From Squalus acanthias (Eukaryota), in assembly GCA_030390025.1 (NCBI GenBank), contig CM059432.1:43154001-43218000 (forward strand): a DNA stretch of 64,000 nucleotides, in the 5' to 3' direction. Each line of letters starts with the position of its first letter. Position 1 is the stretch's first letter. This document shows, in pieces, positions 2,481 to 64,000 of the stretch. A program made the position numbers and the translations under genes. The notes beneath the pieces were generated by a model that saw only the letters and a list, made by a program, of their open reading frames with translations, made no database searches and was not told the DNA's origin.

Positions 2481-2547
2481 TTGTAGCCATCTTTGTTACT
2501 GTTTTCTCCAGCCTAGAACAGATGCTATTACCCAATCAAAGAGCTAA

Positions 2548-3393
2548 GGGCTGGAATTTGCCAATGGGGAGCTTTTGGAGGCGGGACTCCCACTCGTCGG
2601 GCTTCAGTCCCGCCTCCATCAACTTCTGGCCAACCCATGCTATTTTCCCTTGCTTGACCTTGTTAAGCCCGCCCAGCGGGCTTAGCAGGCCAATTAAGGG
2701 AAAGTTGGTTACAGAGAACGTCAACGTATGACGTTTCATCTGTCAAAAATTTTTGACAGATGAATTGTCATCGTTTGACAGCTCTGTGAAGCTGTCAAAC
2801 ACTGACATTCTCTGTAGTTTGATGAGTTCTTGAATTCAAGACCTCATCAAACCTCTTTCTTTTGCAGAAATTAGATGGTTGTTGCAGTGGAGAATGCAAC
2901 GGCCATCTGTCATCTCTACCGCAGAGGTGCGAGACTCTCCGCATACCCACCGACTGAAGCCTGCAGGAAGAAACAAAGGTGAGTACACTTTTTCTAAGAC
3001 TTTCCACTTACCTCAAATACTCACCTCTCCACACTTGCACCCATCACTTACCTCCACAGCACACTTTTGGACCCCTCCAACCCCCGCAGACCCACTACTC
3101 GCCTCAGTGACCCTGGTGGTGTTCGGAGCCTTCGGGAAGCCCGCACTTGTGTGGGCAAAAAGGGGATAATCCTATTTTCTGCCTGTTAACTACCTGTTAA
3201 CAGGCAGTTAAGTGGCTGTAATCCCTTCCTGCCTCAAAGGAGATGGGACCCGGCGTGGGACGGCTACCCGTCTCCTGGCAAGATGGAATGGAGGCGGGTT
3301 GGGGGCGGGTTGGGCACCCGCCCCCAAATTCTGGCATTTTCCCAGCAGTTCCGCCTCTAAACCCGCCTCCCCAAGGCTGGCAAAATCCACCCC
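2548..3393 (+). mobile_element. Harbinger-type MITE, family M1 (hairpin-array core)
   Basis: TIR GGGCTGGAATTTGCC / GGCAAAATCCACCCC; TAA TSD at 2545-2547 and 3394-3396; subterminal CCCGCCTCC repeats; homologous to 3410, 12369 and 39253. Confidence 0.88.
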
Positions 3394-3409
3394 TAAGTAT
3401 CTAACATAA

Positions 3410-4202
3410 GGGCTGGATTCTCTGAATGGAGACATGTTGGAGGTGGGACTGCTGCTTGCCGGGTCTCAGTCCCGCCTCCATCATCTTCTGGCCAACCAGC
3501 GGGATTTTCCCCTGATTGACCTTGTTAATCCCGCCCTGCGGGCTCAGCAGGCCAATTAGGGGGAAGTCACTGACAGAGCACGTCAACTTCTGACGAGCCA
3601 TCTGTCAAGATTTCTTGAAAGAAGAAATGTCAGCGTTTGACAGCTCTGTGAAGCTGTCAAACACTGACATTCTGTGTAGTTTGATGAGGCTTTGTGTTCA
3701 GGATTCATCAAACCTTTCTACTTTGTAGAAATCAGATGACTGTTGGTTCGGAGGATCCAACAGCCAGTCTGTGAAATCTACAATGAAGATGTCGGGACTC
3801 CGGATCCAGAGCGGCTGAAGGCTGGAGGCAGAAACAAAGGTCAGTGAACATTTTCTAACACTTTACATTCACCTCACATACTTACCACTCCACACTTGCA
3901 CCCATCACTCAACTCTACATTGTACTTTCAGACCCCGCAGACCCCCGCAGACCTCATACTCGACTCCTCCACCCCGACGGGGTTCTCCGAGGTCGGGAAG
4001 CCTGCACTTGAAAAGGTAAAATGGGACTAATCCTTTGTTCTGCCTGTTAACTACCTGATGGCAAACCCACCCCCATCCCACCTCCTGGCAAAAGGACACA
4101 GAGGCGGGATGGGGGCAGGTTTGCCACCCGCCCCCGATTTCTGCAACTTTACCGGCAGTCCCGCCTCCATACCCGCCTCTCGAGGCTGGCAAAATCCAGC
4201 CC
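3410..4202 (+). mobile_element. Harbinger-type MITE, family M1
   Basis: TIR GGGCTGGATT / AATCCAGCCC; TAA TSD at 3407-3409 and 4203-4205; colinear with 2548-3393. Confidence 0.88.
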
Positions 4203-4570
4203 TAAGTGTTTGCAGCCCTCTTTACATCTAAGGGGGAGAAATTCGGTATCGCCCCGTTTGGGGCGTTAATTTTTGAAATCGTGAAAAATTAGTGCCAGGC
4301 GCTAATGATTCTGAGCTTCCCCTAAATTTGCTGTTCGCGCTCCAGGAGAGAGCTGGAGCGCTAAATCAAGTGCTAATGACCTCATTAGGCCGCTACACGG
4401 GCACTACCAGCAGATTGATAATGAATTTCAGGTGCAATGCAATCGGGAATGATCCTTCACACTGGCTCCTTCCAGCTCTTAAAGGGAAGGTTGCATCATT
4501 GTGCAGATCCTCATTATCAGCAGTGCTGGCTATGAAGGTGACCTGCAAACAACTCAATCTGCTGATCGTG

Positions 4571-12368: not shown

Positions 12369-13204
12369 GGGCAGAATTTTCATTGACCCGTGGAGGCGGG
12401 TTTGGAGGCATGTGGGGTGGGAAAATAGCAGATTCGGGGGTCCCGAACCCACCCCGCCCCCAACCTGCCTCCATGCCAGTTTCACAGGAGGCGGGTACCC
12501 GACCTGTGCTGGGACCCGCCTCCCCAAGGCGGGAAGGGGATTAGTGCCAATAAACTGCCTGTTAACATGTAGTTAACAGGCAGTTTTTTGCCTAATCCCT
12601 ATTTTTGGCCCTGAAGTGTGGGCTTCCCGACAGGTCCGAACCACGCCGATTTAGCGAGGCGGACCGTCGGTCTGGAGGGCTTGGAGGGGTCGAGATGTCC
12701 GGTGTGCAGGTGAGTGATGGGTGCATGAGTGCAGAAGTAAGTGTGTTTGGTGTGTGTAAAGTGTTTTAAGAACTTGTACTTACCTTAACTTTGTCCTGCA
12801 GGCTAAGGTGTCGGGAGTCCCTCACATCCACGGCACAGAAAGCAGAATGGCCGCAGAGCTGTCAAAAGCTGCAGTCTCTGCTTTCTGTGCTGGATTGATT
12901 TCTAACTGAGTCTAAGTACAGGGACTCATGTTAGAAATCATATTGTCAGTGTTTGACAGCTTCACAGAGCTGTCAAACGCTGAAATTTCATCTGTCAAAA
13001 GCTCTTGACAGATGACATTTCAATGGCTGTCGTCACCTGTATCCAAGGGACCCTTGATTGGCCTGCTAAGCCCGCTGGGGGGGGCTTAACAAAGTCAATC
13101 AAGGGAAAATACAGTGGGTTGACCACAAGTCGATGGAGGCGGGACTACAACCCAAAAAGTGGGAGTCCCGCTTCCATCACGTCCCCATTGACAAAATCCA
13201 GCCC
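12369..13204 (-). mobile_element. Harbinger-type MITE, family M1 (inverted)
   Basis: TIR GGGCAGAATTTT / AAAATCCAGCCC; TTT TSD at 12366-12368 and 13205-13207; TGACAG palindromes at 12944-13017. Confidence 0.85.
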
Positions 13205-26857: not shown

Positions 26858-27225
26858 ATAGAGTCATAGGGGTAGAAATTAGGTCGCGCCCCATTTGGGG
26901 CGCAAATATCGTCCGCGCGCAAATATTAGCGCCTGGCGCTAATTATCGGCACTGACAGGAAACTTCACTTTTACCGCCCCGGGAGGTGAGTGGAGCGCTA
27001 AATTAGGCGCTGCACACCTCTCTTAAGGCGCAAAGGCCTAGGAGTGAGGCGCTAACTCAGCGCACGAGCGCAGCGCAGCTGCTGCCAGTTAGCGCGGGAA
27101 CACAGACACACTGGCGCCGGACACTTCTTAAAGCGGGGGGGGCCACTTGCTCCCCAGCCACACCCTGCTCATTGCAGCCTTGAATCTCAGCCTGGAGAGA
27201 CCTGTAATCCATTTTGCTGCCAAGC

Positions 27226-29438
27226 ATGGAGAGGGTGAGAGAACGCGCTCATCGCTTCACCGAGCGGGCCTTGGATGCTCTGGTTGACGCAGTGGAGCGC
27301 AGACGATGCATGCTGTTCCCAGAGAGTGGCAGGAGGCCTTTGCCACGCGAGTTCAGAAGAGTGTGGAGGGAGGTGGCTCAGAGCGTCTCCTCCAGGAGCA
27401 TGGTGCCCAGGACCCATGTCCAGTGCCGCAAAAAGTTCAACGACCTCACTCGGGTCGTCAGGGTGAGTGGCTTTTTCTCAATACCTCTCCATCCCTCCAT
27501 CTCAACCTCACTCTATGGCCAGAGGGTCTTAAAACCCCAATGCACAACACTCATCCAACACCTATGGCCCTTTCATCAAACACACACACACATTCCACAC
27601 TTTGCATACAGTAAGGGCTATTCACCTATGGGAGGCACATCAGGCAAGACCATGGCTGCATACAGTAAGGGCTATTCACCTATGGGAGGCACATCAGGCA
27701 AGACCATGGCTGCATATTGTAAGGGCTATTCACCTATGGGAGGCACATCAGGCAAGACCATGGCTGCATATTGTAAGGGCTATTCACCTATGGGAGGCAC
27801 ATCAGGCAAGACCATGGCTGCATATTGTAAGGGCTATTCACCTATGGGAGGCACATCAGGCAAGACCATGGCTGCATATTGTAAGGGCTATTCACCTATG
27901 GGAGGCACATCAGGCAAGACCATGGCTGTATATTGACTCAGATGCTGTTCTTTTTCTTGCAGGCTAAGCTGGCTCATAATCGGAGACAGCAGCAACGGAC
28001 GGGTGGAGGGCGGCTTCAGCTGCAACCCCTCAGCGATCTGGAGGAGCGCGTCCACAGGATTGTGGCAAGCCGGGTGATCGGTCCCGTCGCCACTGGAGAC
28101 GCCGACCCCGTTGTGGACAGCAATGGTAAGGTCATCACCTTTTTGTCCTCTGTCCTTCCACTTGTCCCTCACAATACCAGCCTTTGACACTTTCAATCCA
28201 ACTTGCTAACTCGCTGCACTTATTCCTCCCTTACGGCCACCCTGTCCTCACGCTAAAGCCACTCTTGTACCTCCCTGCTTTCAGATGGTGATTCACCAGC
28301 TGAGGAGATGGTCCCTGAAGCTGCCACTGGGAGTGATGCTGCAGCTGAGGAGGAAGAGGAAGCCGGAGCATCAGTGCCACCCTCTCCCGAGGAAGCCCAT
28401 GGCCACACTGGGAACACGCCTTCCCCGGAGGGGAGCAGGGGGGAAGGGGCTGATGATGGTGAAGTTCCAGGACCCAGCGGGCTGCAGCAACGCCATGGGG
28501 GGGGGAGGGAAGAACGGGGGAGCAGGGGGGAAGGGGCTGATGATGGTGAAGTTCCAGGACCCAGCGGGCTGCAGCAACGCCATGGGGGGGGGAGGGAAGA
28601 ACGGGGGAGCAGGGGGGAAGGGGCTGATGATGGTGAAGTTCCAGGACCCAGCGGGCTGCAGCAACGCCATGGGGGGGGGAGGGAAGAACGGGAGCCTTCT
28701 CCCCAGAGGGAGAGTATGCCAGACACTCCTAATGCAATGGACGCAGAGGAGGAGCGGCTGATTGCAGAAATGAACAGCCAGGCGGTGGTCATGCACACTG
28801 AGCTCATGGGTGCAGTGGGAAGGGTGCCCGAATGCATTGAGGCACTGGCAAGGAGTGTGGAGCACTTCGCTGTAGCACAGGCGGATGCCACACTAAAGCT
28901 TACTGCTGCAATTCAGTCACTGGCTGCCAGGAACCCATCTGAGCCTGCTCTCATGCAGACTCAGATTGAGGCCACGCGAGCACTGACTGCTGCCATCCTC
29001 GATGGTTCGTGCACATGTCCCCGGGGCTGTCACCGCGCCGCAGCAGGCCAGCAATCTGTTCTCAGGCAAATTGCTCCGGATGCTGAAGTGCTGCCCCGTG
29101 GGAGTGCCAGTGTGTCGGGCGAGCAGGGAGTTGCTGTCCTCTCTCACGATGACAGCATTCCTGCTGCCAACACTGTCACTTCTCCACTGCACTTGCCACC
29201 GCCTGTAGGACAGACTGCTGCCGCCCATGCAGAGTTGGTGCAGTCTGCAGCCGGGCCCTCCAGGCCCAGAAGTGGTCGAGGCCGTCCTTCAGGGGCATCT
29301 GCAGTGTCAGGGTCTGACAAGCAGCAGCCTTCCACCAGCCTTGCTGCAGCCACTGAGGTCCCATTACGGAGGAGCAGTAGGGTTAGAAGGGGGGAAGTGC
29401 GCAAGGGAAGGAGATCACCCTCGAAGGGCAAAAAGTAG
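27226..29438 (+). CDS. Harbinger Myb/SANT-like DNA-binding protein, exons 27226-27462, 27963-28125, 28285-29438 (517 aa)
   Basis: MERVRERAHRFTERALDALV...WREVAQSV...QCRKKFNDL; GTGAGT and GTAAGG donors with pyrimidine-rich CAG acceptors; the spliced frame is open; the 163-nt exon 2 has the same length as in copy A; basic C-terminus. Confidence 0.88.
27604..27933 (+). repeat. 54-bp minisatellite, 6 copies, in Myb intron 1
   Basis: Unit gcata(ca/tt)gtaagggctattcacctatgggaggcacatcaggcaagaccatggct. Confidence 0.97.
28431..28691 (+). repeat. 87-bp in-frame tandem repeat, 3 copies, in Myb exon 3
   Basis: GSRGEGADDGEVPGPSGLQQRHGGGREER three times. Confidence 0.97.
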
Positions 29439-29732
29439 GAGGTGTGCCAAAATGCTGGTCATTTTTTTATTAAAGGCCGAGGTTCATGGCCCAACTTTTG
29501 TTTAGTGTTTTGGACATTATCTCCAGGTTGTGAGAACCAGTTATGTTATTGACTGTTTTTTTGTGTTTATTTCTATGAGTTTGTCATGAGGAATTGACAC
29601 ACACAGAGTTTGTACAATAAATAAGTTTCTGTATTCAAAATATACATGGCTGGTGGTTGGAATTATTGGTGCCTTGGCCGGCTTAGGGGTTGCGTGCTGG
29701 GTTGATTCGTGTTTGTAGCACTGGCAGGGGTC

Positions 29733-30893
29733 CTAGAAGCGGCTTGCTATTAGTCGTTGACGGACGGCCCTTGCAGTTTGACCATTGTGGGCCGCCCTCC
29801 TGCCTTGGTGCTGCTGCTGATCATCGTCCTCGGCCTGTTCCTCCTCTTCCTCCTCCTCCTCTTGTGGTGCTGCAAGGCCTGGTGGCATTGGCTGCGTCCT
29901 GAGGATTGCCATGTTGTGCAACATGCAGCACACCACTACGAATTTGGAAACTTGCTCAGGCGAGTACTGCAGGGCTCCTCCGGAATGGTCCAGACAGCGG
30001 AATCGTTGTTTGAGCACGCCGATTGTGCGCTCAATAATGTTCCTGGTTGCTTGTTGGCTTTCCTGGTACCGCAGCTCAGCAGGGGTGTTTGGCGCACGGA
30101 GCGGTGTCATCAGCCAGGTGCTCAATGCGTACCCCTTGTCCCCCAGAAGCCAACCAACTGGCTGATGCGGTGCCTCGAAAATTTCTGCCACAGTACTCTG
30201 GCGCAGGATGAAAGCATCGTGGCAGCTGCCCGGATAGTGGGCATTGACAGCGAGAATCACCTGTCTGTGGTCACAGACCAACTGCACATTCAAGGAATGG
30301 AACCCCTTTCTGTTCCGGAACTCCTCTGCATTCTCTCGCGGAGCACGCAAAGCCACATGCGTGCAGTCAATGGCGCCCTGCACCATGGGGAAGCCCGCTA
30401 CCCTCGCAAAGCCCATAGCACGGTCATGCTGCTTGTCTGGGGTCATAGGGAAGGAGATGAAGTCTCGTCTCCTTGTGAAGAGGGCATTGGTGACCTGCCG
30501 GATGCAGCGATGCACCGCAAACTGGGAGATATTGGCGAGGTCCCCAACAGCAGCTTGGAATGAGCCAGTGGCGTAGAAGTTCAAGGCCACTGTGACCTTC
30601 ACTGCCACCGACAGAGACGTCCTGGACCTCAGCTGAGGCTGCAGATCTGGCTGCAGCAGGTGGCAGAGCTCAGTGACCACCTCCTTGCTGAATCGCAGCC
30701 TTCGCAAACACAGCTCCTCGGACATGTGGATGTAGGAGAGCTGTTCACGATATACCCTGGGAGGGTAAGCTCTCCTGTACATGCGCCTGATGGGCCTCCT
30801 CCGTCTGGCCATCATTGCCACTCTCTGTCTGCGTCTCACTCTGCTCCGATTGAGCTGGAGCAGGACGACGCCCCCAATCATTGCAGCCCCCAT
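29733..30893 (-). CDS. Harbinger (HARBI1-like) DDE transposase, 386 aa
   Basis: [64 protein letters not shown]; uninterrupted ORF. Confidence 0.95.
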   Translation of the reverse strand: MGAAMIGGVVLLQLNRSRVRRRQRVAMMARRRRPIRRMYRRAYPPRVYREQLSYIHMSEELCLRRLRFSKEVVTELCHLLQPDLQPQLRSRTSLSVAVKVTVALNFYATGSFQAAVGDLANISQFAVHRCIRQVTNALFTRRRDFISFPMTPDKQHDRAMGFARVAGFPMVQGAIDCTHVALRAPRENAEEFRNRKGFHSLNVQLVCDHRQVILAVNAHYPGSCHDAFILRQSTVAEIFEAPHQPVGWLLGDKGYALSTWLMTPLRAPNTPAELRYQESQQATRNIIERTIGVLKQRFRCLDHSGGALQYSPEQVSKFVVVCCMLHNMAILRTQPMPPGLAAPQEEEEEEEEQAEDDDQQQHQGRRAAHNGQTARAVRQRLIASRF

Positions 30894-31408
30894 CTTCTCT
30901 TTGCCAGAAAAGTAATGAGGTACAGCAACGAAAGTAGCAGCAAAGTTAGGATGAACTAGGCAAAACTACCTCACAAAGCGTTGAGTCAATGTGGAAGTCT
31001 CTCTCTCTCTCTCTCCGAATCTCTCTCTCTCTCTCAGAACGAGTGGTGCATAAATGTCGACCACAGAAAAAGACAGGAAGAGGCCCCCTTTAAATAGCGC
31101 CCCCCCCAGCCCCAGACCGATTGATAACGTTCCAGTCTTCCGGTCGTTGGAAGCGCCAGGCGGTAAGGCAGGGGGCGCCACTCAATTTCCGCTCCAGGGC
31201 GCCCCAAGGGCGGTGCACCATGGACTGATGTCACAATCTGCACGCGCAGGTGGTCGCAGCGGTAAGTTTTAGCGCCGCCGCACAATCTCAAGTTAAGTTC
31301 TCGAGCGGCGCAAACAGCGCTGCGCCCGGGCGTTAGCGCCTTAACGCCCCATTAGCGCCCATTTAAGGCGCTAACGGGAGGCGCAACCAACTGAATTTTT
31401 ACCCCATA

Positions 31409-39252: not shown

Positions 39253-40130
39253 GGGCTGGATTTTACCTGCCGAGAGGAGTTGGGGGCGGGACTGCTGCCT
39301 TCTGGGTTCTAGTCCTGCCCCCAGCGACGTCCGACACACAGACGCTATTTTCCCCTGATTGGCCTTGTTAAGCCCACCCTGTGGGCTTGCTAGCCAATTA
39401 AGGGAAAGCCGGTGTCAGATGACATCAGTTGATGATGCTTCATCTGCCGATTTTCTTGGAGGGACAGGAACCATTTATTTTTGACAGATGATTTGACAGT
39501 GTTTGACAGCATTGAGGTGCTGTCAAACACTGACAATCACTGTACAAAGGTGAGCCCTTGCTCCCAGGCTCTCCAATGACTCTCTCCTTAGGATAAAACA
39601 GATGGCTGCTGCAGGTAAGGGTACAGAAGCGATCTGTCACTTCTCCCAATGAGGTGAGGGCACACAAACACTTCAAAGCTTGTCACCTACAGAAATATCT
39701 AAACACATTTAAAATGACTTTCCCAACATTTCCTTACCTCTGATACTCACCAGTGTCCCATTGCATCCTTCACACCACTTCTGCAGCTGTCATCTATACA
39801 CAAACATTATAACAGACCCACAGCACGCCTCACTTACTCTAGCGGTGTTCCCCAACGTCAGGAAGCCCGCAGCAGAAGTCTCAAAATGGGAAAAAGTCTC
39901 TTAACAGCTGTTAACTACCTGTTAACAGGCAGTTAAGTGGCTATAATCCTCTTTCCGCTGCTAGGAGTCGGGTCCCTGCACAAATCAGGTACCTGACTCC
40001 CGGGAAAATTAGTTGGAGGCGGGTTGGGAGCGGGTTTGGGACCTGCTCCCATTCTTTTTGATTTTCCCAGCAGTCCCACCTCCAGTCCCACCTCCAGACC
40101 CGCCTCCTCAGGGCTGGTAAAATCCAGCCC
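39253..40130 (+). mobile_element. Harbinger-type MITE, family M1 (diverged)
   Basis: TIR GGGCTGGATTTTACC / GGTAAAATCCAGCCC; TAT TSD at 39250-39252 and 40131-40133. Confidence 0.9.
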
Positions 40131-40141
40131 TATGACTCTAA

Positions 40142-40958
40142 GGGGGAGAAATTTGTTATCGCCCCATTTGGGGCGCAAATATCGGCCGGGCGCAAAGTTT
40201 AGCGCCTGGCATTAATTATCGCTTCTGACTGCAAACTTGGCTTCTATCGCCCCTGGAGGTGATTGGAGTGCTAAATCAGGCGCTACACACCTCTCTTAAG
40301 GCACTAAGGCCGAGGAGCAAGGCACTACTTCAGAGCGCTGGCGAAGCTCATGTGATGTCAGTCAGCAATGGAACACAGACACACTGGCGCCGGCCAGTTC
40401 TTAAAGGGGAGGGTTGATCTTGCTCTCCATCCACACCCTGCTCATTGCAGCCTTGAATCTTGGCCTGGAGAGACCTGTACATCAAATCTGCTGGAAAGAA
40501 CAATGGAGAGGCCCAGGGAAAGAGCTCAGAGTGCAGCCCCCAAGTCTCTTCTAAATCGATGCAAGGAAGGTCAAATCAAAATGAACCTGCAAAGTGCTGC
40601 TCAGTACCCAAAACTCCTTCACACAGCGTTGAATCTCTCCAGAAGCCTCTTTCTCTCTGCGTGGTGCAAAAATGTCGCCGACAAAAAAAGGCAGGAAGCG
40701 GTCACCTTTAAATAGCGCTCCCCCAGTCCCTTCCCGACTGCAAAATGCTCCCCTCAACCTGTCGTTGCTAGCGGCAGGCGGTAAGGCAGGGGGCGCCACT
40801 CAATATCCGGTCTGGGGCGCTACCGGGGCATTGCACGCTCGACTGTCGTCATGATCTGCGGGCGCAGGAGATTGTGGCCGTAGTGTTTAGCGCCGCCGCA
40901 AAATGTCTGGTCAATTAGGGCGCTAACAGGAGGCGCAAAGCAACCGAATTTTTCCCCC
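40142..40958 (+). mobile_element. Harbinger MITE, family M2
   Basis: TIR GGGGGAGAAATT / AATTTTTCCCCC; TAA TSD at 40139-40141 and 40959-40961; colinear with 7500-8392. Confidence 0.9.
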
Positions 40959-41269
40959 TAAATGTTACTTGCCACTTATCAACCCAAGCCTGAATGTTGT
41001 CCAGGTCTTGCTGCATGCGGGCATGGACTGCTTCATTATCTGAGGATTTGCAAATGGAACTAAACACTGTGCAATGATCAGCAAATATCCTCACTTCTGA
41101 TCCTATGATGGAGGGAAGTTATTGATGAAGCAGTGATGTCCTGGGGCTGAGATGATTGGCCTCCAACAAACACAACCATCTTCCTTTGTGCTAGGTATGA
41201 CTCCAGCTTTCCCCCAATTCCCAAATTTACAAAAATTGTCTTTATAACTTACAGAATGCTTGTATTGGC

Positions 41270-41400
41270 AACGGAAAATGCTGGAAACACTCAGCACGTC
41301 AGGCAGCATCTCTCCACAGATGGTGCCTAACCTGCTGAGTGTTTCCAGCCTTTTCAGTTGTTATTTCAGATTTCCAGCATCGACAGTATTTTGCTATTGT
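41270..41400. mobile_element. Penelope pLTR remnant (inverted repeat)
   Basis: gaaaatgctggaaacactcagca...tgctgagtgtttccagccttttc; matches 35955-35982. Confidence 0.65.
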
Positions 41401-43374: not shown

Positions 43375-44805
43375 GGGGGCCATTTTCTGACGTCGGAGGA
43401 GGCGGGTTTGGAGGCGGGAAAGGCGGGAAAATCAAAATCGAAGAGGTCGGGTTCAGAACCCGCCTCCAACCCACTTCCGCGGGATTTTGCCAGTGCCGGT
43501 TTTGGAGGTCGGGAAATGCTCCCGCCTCCAGGGGCCATTGCGCCATTAAAGATCCTTAAATGCTCATTACGGGCCTCTCTAAGCCTATTTTGAGAGGCCC
43601 TCGTGATTTTTCCAGCTTTTCGGTGTGATCCACGCACCTCCTAAACCACGCCAGGTAAACCTGGCGGGTTGACTCGTGGGTGGCCTCCTCACTGCTGCAG
43701 GTCTAACAAGACATCGTTTATTGCAGCAAGGGTTACTTGCAGGTGCCAGACCTTGGTTTTAAAAGGTCTTTGATCAGTTTTAGAAGGCCTTCCAAAGTCG
43801 GAGGTGCTGCAGCTTGACTCCATCAACTGTGGGACCTCTTTGGAAGGCCCGCTCCCCGCTTGCAATGAGCGCTTCCCCAAATGAGGCATCTACAAGCAGC
43901 ATGGAAACCATTCGTTTTCTTTTTGCATGGACCTCAGATGAGGATGAGGAGGAGGAGGAGAAGGATCTGGAGGAGGAGGAGGAGGAGGAGGAGGAGGTCA
44001 GAGCGCCAGTGTATCGACCAGCGGCAGCGGCAGCATGCGAGCACATGGCTGCCCGGGATGCAAGGGATGAACTTATCATGACCAGATTTACATAGGTTGC
44101 CCAAGTTGGCACATGTCCTTGGCTCCATCCTAGGACATCATTGACAATGGACATGACTCTCTGGCCTCCATTCACTCAGGCCACCAACCTGACAACGCAA
44201 GTGTGGCGGTGCCCGCAATGTGGAGCTGCCTAAGGCGAAAGAACAGATGGCATAACGCCAACATTTTGGCTTCAAATCATTTTAATGCTTTCCAACAGGG
44301 ATGGCATTTAATCAATACACAGAAACAGTCTCCCAATCTGCACACAAATCTGGAGGTTATATCCCTTGCCAGCTGTACCCACACAGCCTTGGTTTCTTTG
44401 GCAGGCCTCTTCCTCCGAGATGAGTGGAAGAGCACCTCCATGCTAGCTGTCACCCCATCAAACAACATTTGCAGCGCCTCATCCAAGAGCCTCGGGTAGG
44501 CCCTTGCCTTGGAATTGGACATAGTGGTTTCTCAAAGATGTTGGAGGTGGTGCAGGAGACGCAGAAATGCTGTGGAATGAGCCAAGGGAGCAAGAAGCCA
44601 TAAAATCAGACTGGAAAAGTGCTGTCAAAAGAGGCGAGTTTCAGTCCCAAAACACTAATTGAGCAAGGGCATCCCACACCTCTGAAATCAAGTGGCCAAT
44701 CATGGGAAAATTGCAAATATTTGAAACCTATCAGTGGAGGCGAGTTTCAAACCCACCCAAACTGAAACCCGCCTCCATCTCGCCTCCAGTGGGAAAATCG
44801 CCCCC
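43375..44805. mobile_element. Harbinger element E (both genes internally deleted)
   Basis: TIR GGGGGCCATTTTC / GAAAATCGCCCCC; TTG TSD at 43372-43374 and 44806-44808; fused transposase stubs at 43901-44095 (+); Myb exon 1 remnant at 44337-44522 (-). Confidence 0.88.
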
Positions 44806-45525
44806 TTGGAGCTGCTATTGATGCTGATTCTTGGGGGGCGAATTTCCCAGCCCCGAGGAGGCGGGTTTGGAGGCGGGACAGTTGGCAAAATGGCAAAAAC
44901 TGAGGGTGGTTTCGGAACCCGACTCCAACCCGCCTCCACGCAATTTTGCCAGAGGCGGGTTTGATGAGCGCGATTCGGTCCTGCCTCCATCAGTCGGGCG
45001 AGGTAGTTAAGACCCTTAAATAGTAGTTAAGGGCCTCTATAATCCTATTTTGATAGGCCTTTGTTATTTTACCACATTTTCAGCATGTTGCACAGACCTC
45101 CTAAACCACGCCAGCTAATCCTGGCAGCTTGACAAGTGGGTGGCCTCCTCACAGCTGCAGCTCCACCATTAAAACCGAGCTTTCATCAGGGAGCAGTTGC
45201 AGGTGGCAGAACTTTTGTTTCACAGGTCTTTCAGCACTTTTAGCAGGCTTACCGAAGTCGGAGGTGCTGCAGTGGGGGCGTGTCAGGTGGTTTTCGTGTC
45301 AGGAACCCGACTCCGATGTGAAGTGGGAAAAAAGTGCAATTTTCCCCTAATTGGGCACTTGATTTCCAGCGTGTGGGAACCCCTGGCCCAATTAGTCTTT
45401 CTATCCTGAAAGTCGCCTCCGATGACGTCATCAGTGCTGCTGGATTTAAGGCCTGCAAGCTGCCTTGCTTCTTCTGGAGACTGCAAACTTTATGGCCATT
45501 GTTGTGATCGCTTCATTCAGCAAAT

Positions 45526-48500
45526 ATGTCCAGCAGTAGACCAAAGTGTGCTCCACGGTTTGATGAGGCCGCCCTGCAAGCTCTGGTGGAGGAGCAAGAT
45601 CAAATAAGGAGGTGTTCTTCCCTTCCTCAGGGAGGAAGAAGCCTCCCCAGCAGACTAAAGCTGTGTGGATGCAAGTGGCCCAGGAGGTCAACTCAATGTC
45701 TATGTGCCGCAGAACTTGGCTGCAGTGCAGGAAGAGGTTTCATGAACTTCTCCGCACAGGAAAAGTGAGTATGACTTTCCCATCACCCTCAATCTGATCC
45801 CCATTGCCTCTCCTCACCAGCACACAGCTTTGCCAACCACTTCCTTCACATCCCACTTGACCCTTACATCCCTGCACCCTTAGCCATTCCCTCTCTTTGT
45901 ATGTTCACATTCACTTAACTATTCGACGATGCAGCCCTCACACTCCCTATCGCTGTGATGCTATGACAACAACTTTCAACACACAGGGAGGGCCCTTGGT
46001 CTTGGCACCTCACTCTATCTTTGTGTCCTTCTAAGCATCTATGCTATGGATTCTCTACACTCATACATAGATACATACATAGAAGATAGGAGCAGGAGTA
46101 GGCCATCCGGCCCTTCGAGCCTGCTCCGCCATTTAATGAGATCATGGCTGATCCTTCAATTCAGTATCCCGTCCCCGCCTTCTCTCCGTAACCCTTAACC
46201 CCTTTTGCCTGTAGAAATATATCTAATTCCCTCTTAAATATATTTAATGAGCTGGCGTACACTGCCCTCTGTGGCAATGAGTTCCACAGGTTCACCACTC
46301 TCTGAGTGAAGAAATTCCCCCTCATTTCTGTCCTAAATGGTTTAGCCCTTATCCTTAAATTATGTCCTCTAGTTCTGTTCTCACCCGCCAAGGGAAACAT
46401 TCCTTCTGCATCTAATCTGTCTAGACCTGTCAGAATTTTATACACTTCTATGAGGTCCCCTCTCAATCTTCTAAACTCCAGTGTGTACATCCCTAAACTA
46501 CATAGTCTCTCCTCATAGGTCAATCCCGCCATTCCTGGTATCAGCCTGGTGAATCGCCGCTGCACCCCCTCCATGGCAAGAACATCTTTCCTCAGATGAG
46601 GCGACCAAAACTGTACACAGTACTCGAGGTGTGGTCTCACCAGTGCCCTGTACAGCTGCAGCAAGGTATCCCTGTTCCTGTATTCCAACCCTTTTGCTAT
46701 GAAGGCCAGCATACCGTTTGCCTTCTTGACCGCCTGTTGCACCTGCATGCTCGCCTTCAGTGACTGGTGTACAAGAACACCCAGGTCTCTCTGTACTTCC
46801 CCCTCTCCCAATTTATTGCCATTTAAATAATAATTTGCCCTCCCGTTCCTGCACCCAAGGTGGATAACTTCGCACTTGTCCACATTATAGTGCATCTGCC
46901 ATTTATCCGCCCAATCACCCAGTCTGTCCAAATCGCTCTGGAGCTTCCTGGTCTCCTCCTCTGAGCCCACCCCCCCTCCTAGTTTAGTGTCGTCTGCAAA
47001 TTTGGAAATGCTGCATTCGACTCCCTGATCCAGGTCATTAATATAAATTGTGAACAGCTGGGGACCCAGGACAGATCCCTGTGGTACCCCACTTGTTACT
47101 GCCTGCCATTCAGAAAATGAGCCGTTTATTCCAACTCTCTGTTTTCTATCTGACAGCCAGTTCTCTATCCACGTCAATACTTTCCCCTTTATCCCATGAG
47201 CTTCAATTTTCCATGCTAATCTTTTATGTGGGACCTTATCGAAGGCCTTTTGGAAGTCCAGGTACACCACATCTACTGGCTCTCCCCCATCTATTTTACC
47301 AGTTACTCCCTCAAAAAATTCCAATAGATTAGTCAAGCACGATTTACCCTTTGTAAATCCATGTTGACTCTGTCCTATCCTGTCCCCATTTGCTAAGTGC
47401 TCGGCTATTTCATCCTTAATGATGGACTCCAGCATTTTGCCCACAACTGATGTAAGGCTTACAGGTCTGTAATTACCTGCTTTTTCCCTACCCCCCTTTT
47501 TGAATAGTGGGGTAACGTTAGCTACCCTCCAATCCATGGGCACTGTTCCCGAGTCTAATGAATTCTGAAAAATCATGCTTAGTGCATCCGCTATCTCTAG
47601 GGCCACCTCCTTCAGTACCCTAGGATGCATGTTATCAGGCCCTGGGGATTTGTCCGCCTTCAATCCCTTTAGCTTCCTTAACACCATATCCTTAGAGATA
47701 TTGATTTGCGTCAGTTCCTCCTTTGCCAATGTCCCTATTTTTCCCGATATCCCAGGGAGGTTTTTTGTGTCTTCCTTCGTAAAGACTGACCCAAAGTATG
47801 CATTTAGTTGGTCTGCCATTTCCTTATTTCCCATTATATATTCCCCCGTATCTGACTGCAATGGACCAACTTTGGTTTTCACCAGTCTTTTCCTCTTGAT
47901 ATACTTATAAAAGCTTTTGGAGTTAGTTTTTATATTTTCCGCCAGCTTGCTTTCGTAAGCTATTTTGCCCTTCTTGATTAAGCCCTTTGCCCTCCTTTGC
48001 TCTATCTTAAACTGTTCCCAATCTTCCGCTCTGGCGTGTTTTTTGGCTATTTTATACGCCCTATCTTTGGATTTTATGCTGTCTCTAATTTCCCCTGTTA
48101 TCCACGGTTGAGTCACCTTTTTAGATTTCCTTTTATGCCAGATTGGTATAAACAATTTTTGCAATTTTGTCATTCTATCTTTAAATGCTTGCCATTGTTT
48201 ATCTACCTCCAGTCCTCCCAGGAACGTTGTCCAATCAGACCTACTCAGTTCCCGTCTAATGGCATCATAATTCCCCTTGTTTAAATTCAGGACCTGAGTC
48301 TCTGAGTCAATTTCTTCGCTCTCCATTTCGAGTGAGAAATCGATCATGTTATGATCGCTCTGACCCAAGGGTCCCCGTACAACAAGATTACTAATTAGTC
48401 CCTTCTCATTGCACAGTACCCAGTCCAATATAGCCTGTTCCCGAGTTGGTTCCTCGACATATTGATCCAGATAACCATCCCTTAAACACTCACTCCTTCA

Positions 48501-59028: not shown

Positions 59029-59791
59029 GGCCCGAAACATTAGACCTAATACGGGAGATTACGCACTGTGTACTCTCACGTATTAGGTCTCGAAGTGCCG
59101 GTTTCCTGCATGCACTGCGCATGCGCGGGAAACTGGCACTTCAGGTATTGCGAAGGGGACGGTTCCTAAGTGAACCGCGTGCGTGCTACAGGTTGCGCGC
59201 ACGCAGCGCACTTCGTTTTTTTTTCAGGTTTGAACGCGCAGGTAAGTGTTGAAGATTTTACACATGAAGAAAGCAGGCGTAAGACCCCCTTTTAACAAGG
59301 TAAGTAGTTAATTAAGTATTTTAAATTTTTTTCAACAGGTTTATCTTTTTTAGAGACTTTAAATAAAGGTAAGTTTATTTTTATAACTTTTAAAAAGAAT
59401 TTAAATGTTTTCAAAAATTTAAATTTTTGTTTAAAGTGGTTAATTTATTTAACTATAGTTATTTTATTAATGTGATGGCTTTTTTTAAAATTTAATTGAG
59501 GTTTAGCTGTTCTTTTGGGGGCTTGTTGTATTCATAGTTTTGACAGCTCTTGCTGTCAAAACTATGAATGAAAGATGGTGTGCTGCCATTGGCTCTAACT
59601 GGCCCACGTGATCCCAGAGGTCGCATCAAATTAACTGCGCCTCTGGGACACGCACACACTGCGCGCCGGCACCAGGGAGAGGCCCAGGAACTGAAGTTCG
59701 TGTGGGCCAAAACCATAAAGGCAGGCGCGGAGTGCGATATCGCGGGGGATCCTTACCCCCGCGGCAACCATCGAAGTCCAATTTCTGGGCC
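59029..59791 (+). mobile_element. Harbinger-type MITE, family M4, with hairpin cluster and splice signals
   Basis: GGCCCGAAACATTAGAC / GTCCAATTTCTGGGCC; AAT TSD at 59026-59028 and 59792-59794; interrupts the Myb 5' region of F. Confidence 0.8.
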
Positions 59792-62695: not shown

Positions 62696-62799
62696 CAGGT
62701 GTCCCATTGATGAACAAATAACGTTTAACATTTTGGCACCTGAGATGTATGCACATGCACATTTCTCTTTTTATGCAATGCAACCATAGATCACGAAAC

Positions 62800-64000
62800 G
62801 TTAGTACAAAGTCACACTCAACCTCATCCTGCTGTGCCTCTCATCACATCCCCATCACTCTACCTTCCCTACACTACTCCTGCACATTCTTACTCACACC
62901 AACTTACCTTGCACCTCCACCCATCCCTCTCTATCTACATTATCACTTCCCCATCTCACTAGCCATCCCTCACACTCACCCTCATCCTAGTCCAATCATA
63001 CCAACTAACAACACACAAGGGTAGGCACTTGGGTGTTTTAGCCAATGTTCATATGAAGTTTCTGTTAATGTGCTGTCAAACATTGAAATCTTTATTTTCA
63101 ACACTTTGCATTCTTAGACAGATTTGTGTGCACCTTTGGAAGTGGCTTAGTTAGTTGCAGTGAATGGTGAGACATAACAATACCTCCCGCAATGCTGATG
63201 AGTGTGTAAGGAATGGCTTGGGCATTGTAGGGATGCTTTATGGTGTTGGTGTGGGGTGGTGCCAACCTGGTGCATCATGTGGCAGCCAGGGTGTACAGCA
63301 TCAAGTGAAGTAAATCTGGCCATGGTGAGGCCATCCCTGGCGTCCCGGGCAGCAATGTGGTCGGGTACTGATGCCCTCTGTCCTGTGCAGCATCAGTTGA
63401 TTGCGGAGAAGTTTGGTGTTGTTATTGGTGCTGCTGGTGTGCCTGGTGCTGCTGGTGTTGGGGATGATCGTGGTGGGATTCTGAGCACCAAGGTGAGAGA
63501 GTATAAAGGGCACCCATGCTGATGGAATAGATGGCAGGTGAAGTTGAGATGACAGAAGCGACCTGTCAATGGTGAGAGAGGTTGTTCCAATGAGGTGACA
63601 CTGGATACAGAGCCTGCTGCCAAACACCTGCAAGCTGCATAAAGCTCAATCTGTCTTCCAAATGCAGTAAGCAACAGCTTCTAACCTTGTAAAGTGAACA
63701 ACTGTGAAATGGGAGCTTTTATAGACCATTTGCAGCTGTCAAGTTAAGAAATCATCCTATGCTGAAACAACTCCCGACCTGCTTACCTGACGTGATCCAC
63801 GAGCAGCGGTGAACTCTAAAAATCTAAAGGTGAGCTTAAAATAGTTTTTAAGTGCCTGTTAACAAGCTCTTAATAATCTAAATTGCCTCCCCCGCCGCTT
63901 GGTGTCAGGTCTGCTCAGCGATGACAGACCCCACATCTGGGAAACTAGCGTGGAGACGGGTTGAAAATGTTTTTTCCCACCCGACCCGCCTCCAAACGTG
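62800..64000 (-). mobile_element. Degenerate B-lineage non-autonomous Harbinger, runs off the window
   Basis: Minus strand carries the fused transposase stubs (cacaggacagaggg...cacattgctgcccgggacgccaggg) as in B; CCCGCCTCC subterminal motif at the window end. Confidence 0.6.

Follow-up and report, generated by a model that had tools for sequence, protein, structure and literature searches.

A transcribed family of non-autonomous Harbinger elements with a central hairpin array in Squalus acanthias

The 64,000-nucleotide stretch of Squalus acanthias DNA analyzed here (the window) contains four copies of a non-autonomous PIF/Harbinger element, M1, which has an array of inverted repeats at its center. 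We consider it slightly better than an even bet that M1 is a promoter-bearing deletion derivative of a two-gene element, in which stems 1 and 2 of the array are DNA sites of a two-way initiation zone and the pairing of stems 3 and 4 is kept by copying between arms. This reading builds on the observed class of the element, the homology of its right part to a transposase leader, the two patterns of conservation within the array, and the strand pattern of the RNA reads.

Copies, ends, and class of M1

The copies are as follows.

2548..3393, plus strand: M1, non-autonomous PIF/Harbinger element, 846 bp; TAA target duplication at 2545-2547 and 3394-3396
3410..4202, plus strand: second M1 copy; TAA duplication; 73% identical
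12369..13204, minus strand: third M1 copy; AAA duplication; 72% identical; arms of stems 3 and 4 differ
39253..40130, plus strand: fourth M1 copy; TAT duplication; 66% identical; plus-strand donor lost; 24-nt insert in the stem 1 loop
2576..2618, no strand assigned: subterminal inverted pair of the 9-bp motif GGAGGCGGG

All four copies have 3-bp target duplications and terminal inverted repeats (TIRs) that begin with GGG (about 12 bp long at 2548..3393), as expected of the DNA transposon proposed by the first-pass annotation, and both M1 ends match elements carrying Myb or transposase pieces (E 6e-10 to 6e-30). By its 3-bp duplications, its short TIRs shared with coding relatives, and its own lack of the transposase and Myb genes that those relatives encode, the three Harbinger features tested here, M1 is a non-autonomous Harbinger element. 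Whole-element identity among the copies is 68%, and all M1 alignments are of these four related sequences. The GGAGGCGGG 9-mer has six or seven copies per M1 element, distributed over both ends (allowing up to 1 mismatch), and is a subterminal motif common to families B and C of related elements in the window; it is a candidate site for M1's Myb-like protein, or else a GC box. A motif scan for additional M1 copies gave none in metagenome contigs and none in viral contigs. We found no account of the M1 family or its palindrome array in the open literature searched, and the family may already be catalogued in Dfam or Repbase.

Harbinger relatives in the window

DDE_Tnp_4 transposase and Myb/SANT domains were matched by Pfam in five of the six open reading frames scanned, in elements with ends related to those of M1. 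The family A Harbinger at 26870-31405 has transposase and Myb genes that face inward from its two ends; its transposase frame is open for 410 codons, and the first intron of its Myb gene contains a 54-bp tandem repeat. The family C element is as follows.

63312..63997, minus strand: family C, related internally deleted Harbinger; leader 63997-63526, transposase start 63517, C-terminal piece 63374-63312

The reading frame from 63517 (minus strand) is the start of a transposase (E 2.5e-10 to the family B N terminus). Over 62700-64000, this family C element has a decayed Myb piece, an intergenic region, and an internal deletion that fuses N- and C-terminal transposase pieces; its right end continues past the end of the window, and no intact family C element is found within the 64 kb.

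Harbinger elements are packed a few bases apart at 2548-4232, 39253-40142, and 44804-44835, and the 39253 copy of M1, together with the element at 40142, lies within an 8-base repeat resembling a CR1 tail. The 24-nt insert in the stem 1 loop of this copy (39450-39480) overlaps a 14-mer identical to the start of the family B transposase genes (56685 and 56054); this 14-mer runs opposite to the transposase leader of M1 itself. In the second M1 copy, a deletion joins two subterminal arms into a 26-bp stem at 4055-4129, which several miRNA models match at sub-threshold scores (39.9 bits at best, with a cut-off of 74). Outside the Harbinger elements, a hairpin with 43-bp arms lies at 41269-41360, and a CR1-like reverse transcriptase frame (class assigned by eye) is open for 778 codons at 46161-48497.

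Origin of the core

Two putative relics of control regions meet in the core.

2641..2735, plus strand: putative relic of a Myb-gene promoter; CCAAT-type boxes, then a CRE-like site
2873..3393, minus strand: putative relic of a transposase promoter and 5' leader; profile match to 63526-63997; includes the palindrome at 3176-3221

A profile of the four copies (model positions 330-821) is collinear with 63526-63997 (E 4.7e-14), and the stem 4 part of this profile matches the family C leader by itself (E 2.1e-5). Because the match is collinear with the leader that precedes the transposase start at 63517, we assign M1 from stem 4 rightwards, splice donor included, to a transposase promoter and leader; stem 4 is homologous to the 5' leader just upstream of the related transposase ATG (minus strand). 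Profile matches (E 6e-10, 2e-9, and 6e-4) pair the left end of M1 with the end of family B that has the Myb promoter; the single profile match that extends to the CRE-like site has an E of 0.13. Pairwise identity among copies in the CCAAT region is 87%. The first stem (2717-2735) falls on the TGACGTCA-type, CRE-like site of the relatives' Myb promoter, and a common subfamily in the reads has plain TGACGTCA in place of this stem (892 loose-end reads in RNA run X18). The names GC box, CCAAT box, and CRE-like site are those which we take to apply to these motifs.

The core had been described as cargo that could not be aligned to the transposase or Myb genes. No coding match was indeed found (five query peptides against the four copies, 0 tblastn matches), and a coding relic is rejected as the source of the core. 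The cargo label, however, no longer holds for stem 4 rightwards, which is transposase leader and promoter, or for the first stem, which lines up with the Myb CRE-like site; it may still fit approximately 2735-2866, where no source was found among the relatives in the window (core profile against family C, E 0.14 to 0.19). An origin of stems 2 and 3 in the family C inter-gene region is kept as a lead. A match of 11 to 13 bases links the M1 core to sequence next to the poly(A) signal of family C and is no more than suggestive. The four M1 cores outscore all 219 background tiles against this inter-gene region; the flanks of the shared 11-mer are marginal when taken alone (1.5 to 41% of background placements score equally well), and the family C intergenic profile has no match to M1.

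The hairpin array

The stems numbered here are those that follow the first stem.

2735..2764, no strand assigned: stem 1, two TTTGACAG motifs placed tail to tail; arm identity among copies 86-91%
2766..2807, no strand assigned: stem 2, two TTTGACAGC motifs placed head to head; arm identity among copies 95-97%
2817..2852, no strand assigned: stem 3; 51% identity among copies; outer arms a different sequence in the 12369 copy
2873..2908, no strand assigned: stem 4; 65% identity; paired in all four copies with compensatory changes

Five inverted repeats had been reported at 2717-2735, 2735-2764, 2773-2800, 2817-2852, and 2873-2908, and all five are present there, the last with two G.T pairs. The region 2700-2990 folds with z-scores of -9.5 on the plus strand and -11.2 on the minus strand (0 of 200 shuffles fold as well on either), and each of the four copies folds beyond chance (z -5.7 to -14.4, and -5.7 to -13.2 for the three besides the 2548 copy). 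The minus strand folds as well as the plus strand or better in three of the four, and the consensus fold has -56 kcal/mol on the plus strand and -69 kcal/mol on the minus strand. Across the window, 32 stems score at least 10, compared with 0 to 3 in five shuffles; 14 of them lie within the four M1 copies and six are AT runs. The homologous family C leader is unstructured (z -1.2 and -2.0), and the structure is therefore specific to M1. At gathering score, Rfam has no matches in the 64 kb; below threshold there are 38 matches in 2540-4210, the best in the core reaching 24.3 bits against a cut-off of 65. A scaRNA-like match over stems 3 and 4 (24.3 bits, E 0.086) was rejected, as the hinge is absent from the 12369 copy and the stems are without pockets (judged by eye). 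Eulor/UCON-type repeats were also considered, and the accessible portion of PMC5753468 provides no link from them to M1.

Stems 1 and 2 are conserved in sequence. Nineteen of their 28 pairs never vary and one changes on both sides (13 of 17 never vary in stem 2), and their arms are 86 to 97% identical, on a par with the CCAAT region, compared with 68% for the whole element. The perfect 30-bp palindrome reported at 2735-2764 exists in the 2548 copy, but the other three copies do not have the gap-free form. Where 3.6 occurrences of TTTGACAG are expected, the window has 22, of which 14 lie within the four M1 copies and one in each of two longer relatives (44622 and 63073). The stem 1-2 motif pair also forms a perfect 18-bp stem at 59530-59569, in an unrelated element with other flanks and another loop, just downstream of a CCAAT box. 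As the sequence is fixed while the spacing varies, stems 1 and 2 suggest DNA binding sites. The core had been proposed to be either a structured noncoding RNA or a protein-binding platform, and the latter suits the near-invariant sequence of stems 1 and 2, for which the RNA reading is less favored. The TGACAG core of both stems is a candidate site for TALE homeodomain proteins (MEIS/PKNOX/TGIF); M1 resembles such sites in its inverted TGACAG-core pairs, the spacing of which differs between stems and between elements.

The unrelated element that carries the 59530-59569 stem is 763 bp long (59029-59791, minus strand), has GGCCC ends and an ATT duplication, and lies within the 5' portion of a Myb gene of family B. 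Its sequence is not clearly homologous to that of M1, and its opposite strand contains three perfect 5' splice sites.

In stems 3 and 4, the sequence is kept no better than in the spacer, though the pairing stays. Stem 4 with its extensions has 12, 27, 22, and 22 Watson-Crick pairs in the four copies, and stem 3 has 17, 9, 17, and 7; persistence of the stems among copies, as claimed earlier, thus stands for stem 4 throughout, and stem 3 is paired too, except that the 7 pairs of the last copy are at chance level. Five of the 24 pairs in these two stems covary, and some covariation had been anticipated: the full structure has 57 pairs, 7 of which differ on both sides, and none of 500 shuffles attains that number, a test that yields no probability given four related sequences, a structure drawn from one of them, and an alignment off register in stem 3. 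The compensatory swap described in the 39253 copy is confirmed as T-A to A-T. In its family form, with T at 2887 in about 99% of the depth in contigs, stem 4 is capped by a GGAG loop, which is kept in the 3410 copy with its closing pair swapped and is missing from two of the four copies. In the 12369 copy, whole blocks are exchanged in the arms of stems 3 and 4, among them one that extends stem 4 by a perfect 14 bp. Such block replacement is a pattern known for template switching, which homogenizes arms block by block with no need for selection, according to PMC8604942 and bioRxiv 10.1101/2023.04.19.537475. The first-pass annotation had named equal numbers of G.T and A.C mismatches as evidence against structure on an RNA strand, and this is how the count came out: 5 G.T, 7 A.C, and 19 other mismatches in 16 stems (p 0.77, with low power), so that no strand is favored.

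Transcription and splice signals

Two RNA runs from one study (X17 and X18) and two contig runs were mapped to 2500-3405 at 86% likeness, a level that gathers reads of the whole family rather than those of one copy. With 12,833 (X18) and 4,002 (X17) mapped RNA reads, 116 and 15 of them at 99% likeness or more, the M1 family is transcribed. Fifteen variant frequencies in the RNA are intermediate and mostly close to the DNA contig values, indicating that many loci contribute RNA. The mapped share is 0.09% and 0.02% of the RNA runs compared with 0.15% of the contig run, a low share that does not suggest abundant RNA, though the measures differ and are not strictly comparable. Neither RNA run has a pile of read starts or ends within the core.

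The direction of the reads changes with position. In X18 the first mate is mostly plus at 2531-2716 (up to 4.4:1), balanced at 2748-2809, and mostly minus at 2810-3088 (up to 15:1), with a second switch from plus at 3089-3181 to minus at 3182-3398 (up to 7.6:1). X17 has the same sign at 2624-2809, 2965-3088, and 3089-3150, at ratios of no more than 2:1, and also at 2934-3088; it has the opposite sign at 2531-2592 and 3244-3305. The library chemistry is unrecorded, and RNA direction is assigned here by the usual convention. Assuming the usual chemistry, RNA leaves the stem 1-2 zone in both directions, and the palindrome at 3176-3221 lies close to another, weaker zone of this two-way kind. The converse assignment, with the first mate as the sense strand, would require RNA entering from both flanks, and we regard it as doubtful. 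The 3176-3221 sequence and its homologs are overlapping palindromes of TTAAC units and are among the deepest parts of M1 in the DNA contigs.

Splice signals are present on both strands.

2976..2984, plus strand: 5' splice-site consensus AAG/GTGAGT, intron G at 2979; candidate acceptor end at 3089
2961..3051, minus strand: overlapping intron-like signals; donors at 3051, 3024, and 3011; branch-like site under the plus-strand donor; pyrimidine tract; acceptor at 2961

The donor reported after the last stem is in place, with a G at 2981 that is private to the 2548 copy. Approximately 99% of the RNA reads and of the DNA contig depth have A at this position (359/360 and 634/635 reads in X17, 126/126 and 1850/1866 in X18), and the family donor is therefore GTAAGT. 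The plus-strand donor is found in three of the four copies (once as GTCAGT) and is lost from the other, and the acceptor ending at 3089 is found in all four. On the minus strand, the acceptor signal at 2961 is present in three copies at our threshold and the fourth retains TAG, with one to three donors upstream in every copy. No use of the donor appears among the rows listed: none of the 15 joints listed, of 142, has canonical ends on either strand, no loose-end pile at 2978 is among the six listed per RNA run (the smallest of which have 283 and 75 reads, with 1,445 rows beyond those listed), and depth does not fall behind the plus-strand donor. Minor splicing may occur. Eleven of these 15 listed joints (of 142; reads and contigs) are deletions or replacements within 2678-2931.

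Proposed history of M1 and alternatives

The explanation that we favor would begin with a two-gene Harbinger, its genes facing inward, which lost both reading frames by internal deletion. What M1 retained would be the Myb promoter at its left and, at its right, the promoter and leader of the transposase; these two control regions would adjoin in the core. Stems 1 and 2, as inverted TGACAG-core pairs, may be double-stranded protein-binding sites at the center of a two-way initiation zone that would lie downstream of the CCAAT and CRE-like sites. Many copies would be weakly transcribed away from this zone in both directions through putative promoter activity, and the rightward RNA, carrying stems 3 and 4 and the U1-type site, would be mostly unspliced. 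The pairing of stems 3 and 4 could be held by occasional arm-to-arm copying (template switching) in master copies, and the element may gain mobility from open chromatin. What speaks against the DNA-site reading is the covariation of stems 3 and 4 and their place in the RNA that is more abundant, both of which a role as RNA would predict as well.

We consider it unlikely, though it is the best of the alternatives, that the rightward transcript (approximately 2780-3088) is a selected structured noncoding RNA in which stems 3 and 4 act as RNA and the U1-type site stabilizes it. The strand bias over 2810-3088 in X18, with the same sign at 2934-3088 in X17, is consistent with such a transcript, as are the kept pairing in poorly kept sequence, the 7 of 57 pairs changed on both sides (0 of 500 shuffles), the GGAG loop with its swapped closing pair in the 3410 copy, and a structure that the related leader (z -1.2 and -2.0) does not have. 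However, G.T and A.C mismatches stand at 5 and 7, the minus strand folds equally well or better in three of four copies, Rfam offers sub-threshold matches and none at gathering score, the core has no start or end pile, and two of four copies have no GGAG loop; the covariation itself comes from four related sequences and a structure taken from one, and the shuffle result is not a probability. A fuller version, which we judge a shade less probable again, has an abundant Harbinger MITE making its own structured RNA: the palindromic two-way promoter of stems 1 and 2 would drive a transcript of about 300 nt with a near-invariant U1 site, stems 3 and 4 would be selected through turnover, the RNA would aid escape from silencing or movement, and a second, unrelated MITE in the window would have arrived independently at this motif pair and at clustered 5' splice sites.

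The array could also be a by-product, if gap repair or replication gave rise, by fold-back copying, to inverted repeats at a deletion junction and perfected them time and again, leaving functionless stems and an RNA that is background from relic promoters. The position of the array at the junction of two leaders, the 14-mer identical to a related transposase start in the loop of the 39253 copy, the 11 deletions or replacements at 2678-2931 among the 15 joints listed of 142, and the low RNA share are all compatible with this, but the arms of stem 2 are 95 to 97% identical where the copies as a whole reach 68%, and an unrelated element has the motif pair too. These last two observations point to selection on the sequence. 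We hold the by-product account improbable. Least probable of all is that the TTTGACAG pairs or the stem cruciforms are internal sites for M1's own Myb-like protein or transposase and raise mobility directly, for which one may cite internal regions of mPing that raise or lower transposition (PMC9921582), the 9-bp motif bound by the Myb-like protein of Harbinger3_DR (PMC9710019, citing Sinzelle 2008), and the single TTTGACAG in each of two longer relatives (44622 and 63073), whereas the known motif is subterminal, M1 has six or seven copies of a different 9-mer at its ends, and mPing and mPong were found to share no internal sequence (PMC9921582).

Relation to known systems

M1 resembles non-autonomous PIF/Harbinger elements such as the Tourist-like MITEs, including rice mPing, and zebrafish Harbinger3_DR in its 3-bp duplication, short TIRs, and noncoding sequence, and in sharing its ends with elements encoding a DDE_Tnp_4 transposase and a Myb/SANT protein. 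It also has a repeated 9-bp subterminal motif, like Harbinger3_DR (PMC9710019). Internal sequences tune the mobility of mPing, according to PMC9921582 and PMC12595863, and the internal sequence of M1 may tune mobility likewise. Unlike mPing and Harbinger3_DR, M1 is approximately 850 bp long, keeps both promoter regions, has AAA and TAT among its duplications, shows overlapping intron signals on both strands and a position-dependent strand bias in its RNA, and bears at its center an array in which two inverted repeats are invariant and two vary.

The switch of RNA direction over a short, motif-rich zone is shared with divergent promoters and enhancers, including those derived from transposable elements, as are the GC-box, CCAAT, and CRE-like motifs, and divergent initiation is reported to be widespread (PMC6203779, PMC8887488). 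M1 differs from these in being a multi-copy DNA transposon with two such putative zones. Its block-homogenized arms and its perfect stems in single lineages resemble the hairpins of template switching (quasi-palindrome correction and de novo miRNA stems; PMC8604942 and bioRxiv 10.1101/2023.04.19.537475), although most M1 stems have 9 to 22 bp, compared with approximately 35 bp in the miRNA precursors described in the latter, and no loop inversion was noticed in stem 2.

Should stems 3 and 4 be selected as RNA, M1 would be a case of a eukaryotic cut-and-paste MITE carrying an RNA gene; no RNA gene in a Harbinger MITE was found in the open literature searched. If the likely reading holds, M1 is a dense family, with four copies in 64 kb, that spreads a compact two-way promoter and splice signals on both strands through a large vertebrate genome. 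It would then be raw material for new promoters and long noncoding RNAs, and would offer a way to test why certain internal sequences are retained by a MITE.
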